A stretch of DNA of 40,565 nt from a virus (IMGVR_UViG_2687453529_000006), one strand, 5' to 3'; numbered from the stretch's first letter, positions 4,198 to 40,565 are shown. The notes: generated from the letters alone by a model not told the origin. Numbers and translations are program-made.

Positions 4198-4479
4198 TCA
4201 CATCCAGCCACGAAGTTGATGCTCAACAACAATCGCGTATTTATCGAATATTGACGATTTTTTTGCATCATTAATGATGCGCACGTTTACAAAATATCCG
4301 TCTTCCTTAACACATACCGGTTCGCCATCTTCAGTCAGTTCTCCGCTTTCTTTGTACACGTTACCTATCACGTCAATAAGAATATCATCCTGCATCGACT
4401 CGTCATCATAATAGCCAATACTCTCCATAAAGGCCGAAAAGTCGGCCCTGTCTGCAAATTTGAGTGTTAAATCTTTCAT
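4198..4479 (-). CDS. Hypothetical protein between the two fibre genes
   Basis: 93-aa acidic ORF; 4-nt overlap with stf stop region; no family recognised (does not resemble lambda Tfa). Confidence 0.45.
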   Translation of the reverse strand: MKDLTLKFADRADFSAFMESIGYYDDESMQDDILIDVIGNVYKESGELTEDGEPVCVKEDGYFVNVRIINDAKKSSIFDKYAIVVEHQLRGWM

Positions 4480-38148: not shown

Positions 38149-38181
38149 TTGCAAAATAATTGCATTGCGTATATATACGCA
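38149..38181 (+). promoter_or_regulatory. Promoter with 16-bp perfect palindrome upstream of the AT-rich membrane-protein gene
   Basis: TTGCAA, 17-nt spacer, TATATA; palindrome TGCGTATATATACGCA spans the -10. Confidence 0.5.
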
Positions 38182-38203
38182 CATGTGTTGTATTACAGCG
38201 ATA

Positions 38204-38998
38204 ATGGTAAAGCAAATGATTAACTCTGAAGCAATTGAGCAACTAATGTGGCTATGGTCCTTATTTGACATTAAATTCTTATCTATTCTTGCCGCTGCCT
38301 TCACTATATATTTTGGCGTGCAAAAAATATCAAAAAAGGTGACAGTGTCGTATTCGACAGATGTAAGTAGAATATATGACATGCATATATCAACCATAAT
38401 CCTGAATAATAAAAGAGATAATGCAATTGCTATATCTTCAATCAATATGGAGGTTGAAGGTAAAGGGATACTACAAGTTATTAAATTTGACTCCCCTCTT
38501 CTTTTAAAGAACTATGATTCTTTAAAAGTTGAACCACCAAAATTTAGCAGCCTTTATAATAATGATGGCGTAGTTAAGTTAGATATTTCTGATAAGTTTC
38601 ATTTTTATATAATCACGACATCTGGAGATGAAATTAAATGTATTTCTGAAAATAAATATGTGGCACCAAACATGGAAAACAAAATAGCTACAGACATAAG
38701 AAAATTTAATGGCATTGTCTTAACAAACAGAATGTCTTATATTTTTTTCTATGCAAATGACAACGGAGAGAAATACTGCATAATAGATGTTTCATTGTTC
38801 ATAAATGGTGACAACCCATTTCATTTTAATTTTTTAAAAGAAGATGAATTAAGAGATTTTTCTAGCATCCTTATTGGTTACGGATATCACCAACGGTTTA
38901 AAAGTTATGCATTGTTTAAAATAGACAACCATCTTGCTCCTTCTTTGGTTTTAAATAAGTCAATGATAGAAAATAATATTATTGAAATGAATAAGTAA
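38204..38998 (+). CDS. Unrecognised low-GC membrane-anchored protein (about 265 aa)
   Basis: Long ORF in a markedly AT-rich block; one N-terminal hydrophobic helix (…FLSILAAAFTIYFGV…); start codon uncertain (track ORF begins at 38165 with TTG). Confidence 0.6.
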   Translation: MVKQMINSEAIEQLMWLWSLFDIKFLSILAAAFTIYFGVQKISKKVTVSYSTDVSRIYDMHISTIILNNKRDNAIAISSINMEVEGKGILQVIKFDSPLLLKNYDSLKVEPPKFSSLYNNDGVVKLDISDKFHFYIITTSGDEIKCISENKYVAPNMENKIATDIRKFNGIVLTNRMSYIFFYANDNGEKYCIIDVSLFINGDNPFHFNFLKEDELRDFSSILIGYGYHQRFKSYALFKIDNHLAPSLVLNKSMIENNIIEMNK

Positions 38999-39034: not shown

Positions 39035-39316
39035 ATGAATACCTTGTTTTTACTGATGGCTGAATTCAATACCCCAAACATTGAACTCTCAGCAGTTAGT
39101 CAAAAATACTTTGGTATGAGTCCAGCCACAGCAGAAGCAAAAGCAAACGCTTGTAAGTTGCCCGTTCCAACATATCGCATCGGCACATCACAAAAAGCAA
39201 AACGTTGCATCAATATTCAGGATCTTGCGGAATATATAGACAAAAGACGAGAAGAAGGACGTATCGAGTGGGAACAGGTCAGAACAGGCAAACAGAAGGG
39301 CAAAGAACATCACTAA
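39035..39316 (+). CDS. PrtN-like small DNA-binding regulator (pyocin-activator/excisionase-like)
   Basis: 93 aa; MNTLFLLMAEF...KLPVPTYRIG... resembles PrtN family as remembered. Confidence 0.7.
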   Translation: MNTLFLLMAEFNTPNIELSAVSQKYFGMSPATAEAKANACKLPVPTYRIGTSQKAKRCINIQDLAEYIDKRREEGRIEWEQVRTGKQKGKEHH

Positions 39317-39317
39317 A

Positions 39318-39350
39318 GAAAAAACCCGCCTAAAGGCGGGTTTTCAAAAA
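39318..39350. terminator. Bidirectional intrinsic terminator
   Basis: acccgcc-taaa-ggcgggt flanked by A-run and T-run; sits between convergent genes. Confidence 0.6.
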
Positions 39351-39363
39351 GCACCAGCTATGA

Positions 39364-39537
39364 TCATGCTGCTTTGCGACGACGAAGCTTACCCTGCTGC
39401 TCTTTACCAGAGACAATAGCGTGAGTGAACGCATTAGGAGCAGCCTTCATCAGAACTTCAGCAGCAGCCCCCATACCTGCGAATGCTTTCATTGTGTCGA
39501 ACTTAACCTGTGGCTTGGTTGCTTTTTGATCTTCCAT
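39364..39537 (-). CDS. Small basic protein (57 aa), last gene of the minus-strand accessory operon
   Basis: Below the ORF-track cutoff: MEDQKATKPQVKFDTMKAFAGMGAAAEVLMKAAPNAFTHAIVSGKEQQGKLRRRKAA; GGAG RBS; terminator immediately downstream. Confidence 0.45.
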   Translation of the reverse strand: MEDQKATKPQVKFDTMKAFAGMGAAAEVLMKAAPNAFTHAIVSGKEQQGKLRRRKAA

Positions 39538-39576
39538 AGAAAACTCCAGAAGCTATACCGAAAAAATTCCTGTTGT

Positions 39577-39996
39577 TTACTCATCATCAATAGATGATAC
39601 GCAATATTTATTTTTAAATTTAAGGTTCTTTGGCGTAACTTCATCAGATATATCAAAACCGTCCAGAATTCTATTGAATGTAGCTTCTGGCATATCATCA
39701 TGAACAGAAATCTCACCCGATCGCTGCTTTCTAACCATGTTATCCACTCGCCAAATTATAGCTTCAGCGTAAACAACATAACTTGGATGCTTGATAAAGC
39801 GATGATCACCAGAATTCAAGACGCAAGACGGATCGTGGGGGACACCATCCTTGATACTAGAAATATTAACAACTAAAACACAATAACAATCGTTAACGGG
39901 GTAATAAACAGGATCATTACAAATCACATGAAGATGATTGCATGGCCCAGTTGGGGCAAGCACAGTTCCTTTCCTGTATGGCTGATAATCCGTCAT
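39577..39996 (-). CDS. Unrecognised 139-aa protein translationally coupled to the PanA-like gene (candidate toxin/effector)
   Basis: Start overlaps upstream stop (ATGA); low GC; contains an R-x6-H stretch (RSGEISVH). Confidence 0.6.
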   Translation of the reverse strand: MTDYQPYRKGTVLAPTGPCNHLHVICNDPVYYPVNDCYCVLVVNISSIKDGVPHDPSCVLNSGDHRFIKHPSYVVYAEAIIWRVDNMVRKQRSGEISVHDDMPEATFNRILDGFDISDEVTPKNLKFKNKYCVSSIDDE

Positions 39997-40565
39997 GATA
40001 ATTGCAAAGAAAATTCCTTAAGTTTCTGAGATTCTTCCATTTTGCCAATTATACGATTAGCCTCATCCTCGCTTTTACCCTCACTGATCAGCATTTCTTT
40101 CAGGTCTATAGGCTTACGAGAATTGCCAGAATTATGCCACTCTGGACAAACGCTTTCTAAATGCGTCATGTTTGCGAGATCAAATCGGTTCATATGCCCA
40201 TACAGAGAATAGATTTCATCTAAAATCCGGATATCTGCACGGCTCAACTCATCAAAGACCTCGTCTGCATCCATTTCCCTCGGATCTGAACGCAACAACA
40301 CATCATGCCCGTTCGTCTCTATCAAGTTGTACCAGTAGTCACCAATGCCTTCAGCCTTACCACGAATCAAGTTCAGCGTATTCGACATGACTGGACCAAA
40401 TTTCATAGAGTAAAGACTATCTTCGCCGATCATCCTGCCATGCTTCAAAATCGACTTGCGGTTAGACAGATAGAGCAGCTTCATCAATTTCAGATATGCC
40501 ATGCGCCCACCTCGCTTAAGAAGTAGGTATGCAGCCATTTGAGCTACTTTTTCTTCGCAAAACAT
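39993..40565 (-). CDS. Panacea-domain (DUF4065, PanA/GepA-like) protein, N-terminus probably beyond the window
   Basis: ...AYLKLMKLLYLSNRKSILKHGRMIGEDSLYSMKFGPVMSNT... resembles the Panacea domain core as remembered; ORF reaches the window edge. Confidence 0.6.
   Translation of the reverse strand: MFCEEKVAQMAAYLLLKRGGRMAYLKLMKLLYLSNRKSILKHGRMIGEDSLYSMKFGPVMSNTLNLIRGKAEGIGDYWYNLIETNGHDVLLRSDPREMDADEVFDELSRADIRILDEIYSLYGHMNRFDLANMTHLESVCPEWHNSGNSRKPIDLKEMLISEGKSEDEANRIIGKMEESQKLKEFSLQLS

Follow-up and report, generated by a model that had tools for sequence, protein, structure and literature searches.

At one end of the 40,565-nt viral DNA stretch IMGVR_UViG_2687453529_000006 (hereafter the window, that is, the whole stretch analyzed, whose numbering is used for coordinates), the region 39364-40565 holds three co-oriented minus-strand open reading frames (ORFs) of 190, 139, and 57 aa. 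The question that this locus raises is what the first two ORFs, which overlap, encode together, and whether the third belongs with them. An earlier reading, made from the sequence alone (the sequence-only reading), had proposed a three-gene operon headed by a Panacea-domain protein, with the 139-aa protein as a candidate new toxin. The analysis reported here indicates that the locus is probably a type II toxin–antitoxin (TA) module of the PanAT class, in which a Panacea antitoxin (PanA) is paired with a cluster T6 toxin (PanT) of MazF/Kid fold, carried as a cargo cassette of a prophage. The pair is a further member of a toxin family that has already been catalogued and validated in another species.

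Identification of the Panacea antitoxin and its coupling to PanT

The 190-aa protein was matched to the Pfam family PF13274 (SocA_Panacea) over residues 27–137 (E value, 1.9e-18; 67.9 bits against a cut-off of 25.7), and it bears the name “Panacea domain-containing protein” in RefSeq (WP_060684349.1), which agrees with the sequence-only reading of the first gene. The same reading had taken this gene to be partial at the window edge, but it is complete. Its ATG starts at base 40565, the last base of the window, and Escherichia phages SKA5 and Lys8385Vzw, as well as E. coli ST648, carry an annotated 573-nt coding sequence (CDS) identical to it. PanA homologues from seven genera also begin at the same residue, with M-F-x-E-x-K-V-A-Q as the N-terminus. 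The AlphaFold (AF2) model of PanA (predicted local distance difference test [pLDDT], 93) showed a helical core with two beta-hairpins and two additional helices, at residues 155–161 and 166–189, outside the Pfam domain. This C-terminal helical extension is conserved in those PanAs whose partner toxins belong to the PanT family. When the PDB was searched with the PanA sequence, no match was obtained, and a Foldseek comparison of the model against the PDB found no resembling solved structure (best E value, 2.2); the Panacea membership of PanA therefore rests on the Pfam hidden Markov model.

The conservation of the pair was analyzed in 40 related loci outside this prophage type, which came from Pluralibacter, Kosakonia, six Photorhabdus species, Proteus, Pluralibacter gergoviae, two Pseudomonas, a Bdellovibrionales metagenome-assembled genome, a wood metagenome, and sixteen diverged IMG/VR prophages. 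Upstream sequence was sufficient in 39 of these loci, and every one of them had a Panacea gene immediately before the toxin gene on the same strand; the two genes either overlapped by 4 nt or 1 nt or lay no more than 13 nt apart. The neighboring genes varied from locus to locus and included phage tail genes, Abi_2, a KAP NTPase, a reverse transcriptase, a ParE/Phd pair, and housekeeping genes. Conserved coupling amid varying flanks is the signature of a mobile two-gene TA module, not of a three-gene system. Among the GenBank phages, the toxin was also present in nine of the 11 that carried a PanA homologue. The ATGA overlap of the two window genes (TCATGACGG) had been recognized from the sequence alone. 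The proposal of a Panacea antitoxin coupled to a toxin thus stands, supported by the PF13274 match and by the 39 coupled loci; its other half, that the partner was new and unrecognized, does not, given the predicted MazF/Kid fold and the T6 family described below.

The pattern of gene decay also bears on the nature of the partner. At two Photorhabdus loci the toxin gene was disrupted beside an intact 202-aa PanA, and the reverse pattern was seen in none of the loci examined; such toxin-only decay fits a toxic partner. Both window ORFs are intact and 97–100% conserved in 205 complete E. coli genomes. Short gene calls at two further loci, L027 and L028, were considered as truncated toxins and rejected, since the ORFs proved to be full-length with alternative start codons.

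Two side observations were made during this survey. A search for related loci with the closer alignment of the family returned mostly copies of the same E. coli element. At L015, L021, L023, and L028, which are loci of other hosts, the panAT pair adjoins Abi_2, a KAP NTPase, a reverse transcriptase (RVT_1), or a ParE/Phd pair, and such neighbors are an anecdotal sign of a defense-island or TA-island context.

Predicted fold and conserved residues of PanT

The 139-aa PanT corresponds to PHROG 19071, a family of unknown function, and showed no match in Pfam (including PemK_toxin, PF02452), NCBIfam, or PADLOC. A word-indexed search with PanT found 62 close clusters from Enterobacterales, Vibrio, and Shewanella, and a profile search of 1.84 billion representatives returned 2,703 at E ≤ 1e-3 and 929 at E ≤ 1e-10. 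No Pseudomonas toxin was returned by the profile-based word search; the Pseudomonas pairs were found through the PanA search and not through the toxin profile. The AlphaFold model of PanT (pLDDT, 90; predicted template modeling [TM] score, 0.84) consists of a small beta-barrel followed by helices. When this model was compared with the PDB by Foldseek, all of the top 50 structures were MazF-family toxins, with a probability of approximately 1 and TM scores of up to 0.63. PanT is thus predicted, from its model, to adopt the MazF/Kid fold.

Residue conservation was assessed across 127 representatives of the PanT family that are 25–50% identical to the query. H21, L22, D55, C58, G63, H65, F67, S72, Y76, G113, and S117 were near-invariant, and serine or threonine was kept at positions 46–47. 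All of the family-invariant residues are present in the PanT of the window.

The RefSeq/PGAP annotation starts the toxin at a GTG at codon 12, giving a product of 128 aa (3278–3664 in L011, the source genome locus). The overlapping ATG that yields 139 aa is probably the correct start and the RefSeq start wrong, because the longer form includes an invariant G10, conserved P6, K9, and T11, and the predicted strand beta1 (residues 10–16). Separately, the 90%-identity cluster assigned to the toxin was the same 541-member cluster as that assigned to PanA. The two proteins are unrelated, and the shared cluster is probably a clustering artifact arising from the overlapping genes or from a read-through entry.

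Relationship to cluster T6 of the PanAT family

DUF4065 was named “Panacea” by Kurata et al. (2022, PNAS; PMC8832971), who described 88 clusters of partner toxins and validated nine pairs. In their T6 cluster the antitoxin gene comes first and the overlaps are −4 or −1, and Dataset S1 of that study lists T6 pairs from Proteus vulgaris, Pluralibacter gergoviae, Pantoea septica, Photorhabdus laumondii, Halomonas, and Pseudomonas. The T6 toxin of Pseudomonas moraviensis was found to be toxic, was rescued by its PanA, and co-purified with it as a complex in pull-down; it specifically blocked the incorporation of 35S-Met and was called EndoA/PemK/MazF-like by HHpred (PMC8832971).

The window pair was connected to this cluster through a Pseudomonas fluorescens PanA, P0429, which is 43% identical to the PanA of the window. 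The 90%-identity cluster of P0429 includes WP_092267218.1, a PanA paired with a T6 toxin in Dataset S1, and its N-terminus, LIFSEQKVAQ, is the very stretch of ten residues that the authors of that study restored to the P. moraviensis PanA. The toxin gene downstream of P0429 overlaps it by 1 nt, and its product is 37% identical to the window PanT (E value, 2e-30) and matched the PanT family profile with an E value of 1.7e-45; the corresponding value for the partner toxin of Pluralibacter gergoviae was 2.2e-49. The loci found here also share their genera and gene arrangement with the T6 list of Dataset S1. By these sequence comparisons, the window PanT family appears to be the T6 family of Kurata et al., through a link that is indirect but strong.

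The E. coli T1 pair of the same study, reported as not toxic, was considered as the window locus and rejected. It has an overlap of −20, and within the phage collection neither protein of the window pair found a match in Salmonella phage Emek, a T1 carrier. A literature search found no paper on the present E. coli cassette.

The 57-aa gene

The 57-aa ORF follows panT on the same strand after a gap of 39 nt, with no terminator between them and a common terminator after both. This arrangement favors the tripartite system suggested by the sequence-only reading, in which the small protein, basic as that reading had judged (pI 10.2), would serve as a third component such as a regulator, a chaperone, or a second antitoxin. 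The distribution of the gene speaks against it. The excisionase gene xis and the 57-aa gene occur without panAT in phage mEp460 and in approximately 360 of the 565 matching E. coli genomes, and homology breaks off 10–13 nt upstream of the ATG of the 57-aa gene. No homologue of the 57-aa protein was found in any of the 40 panAT loci outside this prophage type, and in Pluralibacter and Kosakonia xis directly follows the toxin gene. The protein is known from E. coli, Klebsiella, Citrobacter, and Salmonella. The 57-aa gene is conserved phage backbone and no component of the TA system, and a tripartite arrangement is considered very improbable. Transcription may possibly read through from panAT into this gene. 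Whichever cargo lies upstream, the 57-aa gene is the constant last gene of the minus-strand unit.

Prophage setting and the cargo cassette

The window is a lambdoid prophage whose integration site is assigned to dusA from the partial tRNA-dihydrouridine synthase CDS that annotations of SKA5, ST648, and O157:H7 place next to the cassette. At the other end of the window, the 345-aa ORF at 542–1579 has the length of E. coli DusA, a match by length only. The 365-aa ORF at 1668–2765 has the same length as the integrase annotated in SKA5, which is again a likeness by length only. The window is 100% identical to its source genome, E. coli ST648 (NZ_CP008697.1), and in that genome the Panacea gene is followed by approximately 250 bp and then by a duplicated 5′ fragment of dusA that marks attR.

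When complete E. coli genomes were searched, 205 of 5,426 (approximately 4%) carried the whole 1.27-kb query, and approximately 360 further E. coli genomes matched its first 250 bases only, a stretch that covers the end of xis along with the terminator and the 57-aa gene. Because these genomes match that part alone, panA, panT, and the upstream region constitute a cargo cassette of 1.2 kb, a discrete unit that occupies a variable slot. The slot lies between the conserved 57-aa gene, which is next to xis, and attR of the dusA-integrating prophage; the right boundary of the cassette falls approximately 193 bp past the end of the window, so that the cassette includes a putative promoter. The coordinates of the features are listed in Table 1.

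Table 1. Features of the panAT locus in the window and disrupted toxin genes in Photorhabdus
Feature	Coordinates	Strand	Description
panA	39993..40565	-	Complete 190-aa antitoxin; Panacea/DUF4065 domain at residues 27-137; helices at 155-161 and 166-189
panT	39577..39996	-	139-aa toxin; predicted MazF/Kid/CcdB fold; probable member of Kurata cluster T6
ATGA stop/start overlap of panA and panT (translational coupling)	39993..39996	-	Sequence TCATGACGG
Cargo cassette, part within the window	39548..40565	.	Left boundary at ~39548
57-aa basic ORF (phrog_2741)	39364..39537	-	Phage-backbone gene; present without panAT elsewhere
Intrinsic-terminator-like hairpin	39320..39345	-	11-bp stem with 6 G-C pairs, loop of 4, T-run
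PrtN-type excisionase (xis)	39035-39316		
Disrupted toxins, Photorhabdus	L006 3558-3935 and L008 3558-3746		Frameshifted tail in one, 62-aa stump in the other

The composition of the region had also been described correctly from the sequence alone: its GC content is 41.8% against 50.2% for the whole window, and that of panT is 38.3%. The terminator noted after the 57-aa gene was likewise found. It lies 4 nt beyond the end of xis, which is on the opposite strand, and closes the minus-strand unit.

Dozens of IMG/VR prophage contigs (L029–L092) begin precisely at the ATG of panA or of the toxin gene, and the edge of the window is therefore a gene-boundary trimming artifact. Prophage-boundary trimming removes the promoter, and roughly one contig in three has lost the antitoxin gene as well. 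The window itself is without the approximately 250 bp of DNA upstream of panA in which the promoter region lies. When this upstream DNA of the source genome was scanned for promoters, a single weak candidate emerged, and the count did not exceed chance expectation. An imperfect palindrome, CACCATAAGGAGCTCATGTTGGTG, was noticed between a weak promoter-like site (TTGACC-17-TAAACT) and the start of panA; the two elements are at 4329–4352 and 4393–4421 of the source genome locus (L011), outside the window. The palindrome could be an operator.

A 277-aa ORF at 38165–38998 on the plus strand, just upstream of xis, has a GC content of only 29.7% against the 50.2% of the window. The RefSeq version of this ORF is 260 aa long (WP_023908887.1). 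It belongs to PHROG 14996, of unknown function, and had no match in Pfam, NCBIfam, or PADLOC. It looks like a second foreign cargo gene of the early-left region.

Proposed mechanism and alternative explanations

By analogy with the P. moraviensis homologue, PanT would most likely block protein synthesis, probably as an RNase, and PanA would most likely neutralize it through direct binding. Panacea antitoxins have been described as neutralizing either directly or through a separate neutralizing extension such as Phd-C, and Panacea itself has been proposed to be a sensor (Ernits et al., 2023; PMC10440598). The acidic C-terminal helices of PanA may be the neutralizing element, in the manner of the MazE C-terminus on MazF and of Phd-C. 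The cassette is likely to benefit the prophage or its host lysogen, through abortive-infection defense or through addiction; this role is suggested solely by the position in a prophage cargo slot and by the defense-type neighbors in other hosts, and a defense role in particular is possible.

Several results weigh against this interpretation. No link between PanT and MazF was detected at the sequence level: PDB searches with the single PanT sequence and with the profile gave nothing meaningful, and a Pfam search over the 127 representatives matched PemK_toxin in one of them (E value, 0.11) and gave no consistent family. An hhalign comparison of the PanT family with three MazF/Kid sequences returned a probability of 0.7%, so that its residue equivalences are hints only. 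In this weak alignment, H21-L22 of PanT stands opposite H28-R29 of EcMazF, and I45-S46-S47 (“VNISS”) opposite C51-T52-T53 (“VPCTT”). Of the MazF catalytic residues compared, Arg (R29) and Thr (T52) of EcMazF, the Arg is absent from the PanT family at this low confidence; it appears to have been replaced, with L22 opposite R29, and RNase activity of PanT is therefore not assured. The T6 assignment was also made indirectly, through the P. fluorescens pair and not through the P. moraviensis toxin WP_083201923.1. Furthermore, eight of the 25 PanTs tested were non-toxic in E. coli, as was an unrelated E. coli phage pair of cluster T1 (PMC8832971). With respect to the defense role, none of the three proteins matched PADLOC-DB v2 at E ≤ 1.

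Other explanations were also considered. The near-invariant H21, D55, C58, and H65 have no counterpart in MazF and could form another catalytic or metal-binding site on the MazF fold, which would make PanT a metal-dependent nuclease, a Cys/His enzyme, or a CcdB-like protein-binding poison. We regard such a non-MazF action as unlikely, though as the most probable of the alternatives. However, the specific block of translation by the P. moraviensis homologue (PMC8832971) fits an RNase and speaks against a gyrase poison. In addition, serine or threonine is found at the position of the MazF catalytic Thr, and H21 beside that of the Arg; it is therefore equally possible that the site is MazF-like and has His where MazF has Arg. 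A bolder version, which we think quite unlikely, holds that the T6 PanT replaced the Arg/Thr site of MazF by His21/Asp55/Cys58/His65 with a metal-dependent or Cys/His-based chemistry new to the fold, that the cassette is an abortive-infection module, and that Panacea senses the infecting phage. The non-toxic PanTs among those tested would also agree with a pair that is non-toxic or a domesticated remnant with TA gene order, its PanA serving another phage function. The intactness and conservation of both ORFs in the 205 genomes, the full set of family-invariant residues, the tight overlap that has been kept, and the toxin-only decay at the two Photorhabdus loci make this improbable. The R-x6-H stretch that the sequence-only reading took for a possible HEPN-like motif is indeed present in the window as R92 and H99, but R92 occurs in 11 and H99 in 33 of the 127 representatives, and the model is a beta-barrel with C-terminal helices that matches MazF/Kid, whereas HEPN RNases carry a conserved R-x4-6-H motif within an all-helical domain. 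The chance that PanT is a HEPN-like RNase is negligible. A PanAT module with a MazF/Kid-fold T6 toxin remains the best explanation of the locus.

Significance

These results give a functional label to two genes that are called “hypothetical protein” in RefSeq and phage records and that also occur in several temperate phages. They define, near attR in dusA prophages, a slot in which cargo can be swapped, and they correct the three-gene idea to a two-gene system. The PanT family has no Pfam, NCBIfam, or PADLOC model, and a profile built from the present alignment would improve annotation.

Comparison with known systems

In tripartite TA systems, such as toxin–antitoxin–chaperone (TAC) and paaR-paaA-parE, the third gene is co-conserved with the pair, whereas no such co-conservation is seen here. 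CcdB of the F plasmid, to whose fold class PanT is also predicted to belong, poisons gyrase. CcdAB differs in that the T6 homologue blocks translation and not replication (PMC8832971), and the antitoxin differs as well.

SocAB of Caulobacter is the founding system with a DUF4065 antitoxin and shares the Panacea/DUF4065 domain with PanA. Its toxin SocB blocks the DnaN clamp, and SocA is a ClpXP adaptor. SocB is unrelated to PanT, and the NCBIfam SocA equivalog model, which labels SocA a type VI antitoxin, scored PanA at 13.6 bits against a cut-off of 190. Direct binding is the mode of action in the PanAT pairs that have been tested to date (PMC8832971).

MazEF and Kis-Kid (PemIK) have toxins of the fold predicted for PanT but no detectable sequence homology to it, and their antitoxins are of the AbrB or ribbon–helix–helix type (MazE/Kis), where a Panacea protein is found here. 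PanT is apparently without the catalytic Arg of these toxins and has its own invariant set of H21, D55, C58, and H65, and it differs from MazF in two extra C-terminal helices, at residues 104–116 and 122–131.

The closest counterpart is the PanAT pair of P. moraviensis. That pair is chromosomal and was scored “NotPhage,” whereas the window pair occupies a cargo slot of an E. coli dusA prophage; the proteins of the two pairs are approximately 60% diverged in sequence. The two nevertheless share a stand-alone Panacea antitoxin of approximately 183–190 aa with the N-terminus M-F/I-x-E-x-KVAQ, an antitoxin gene that comes first with an overlap of 1–4 nt, and a toxin of approximately 133–139 aa that is MazF-like by structure only.
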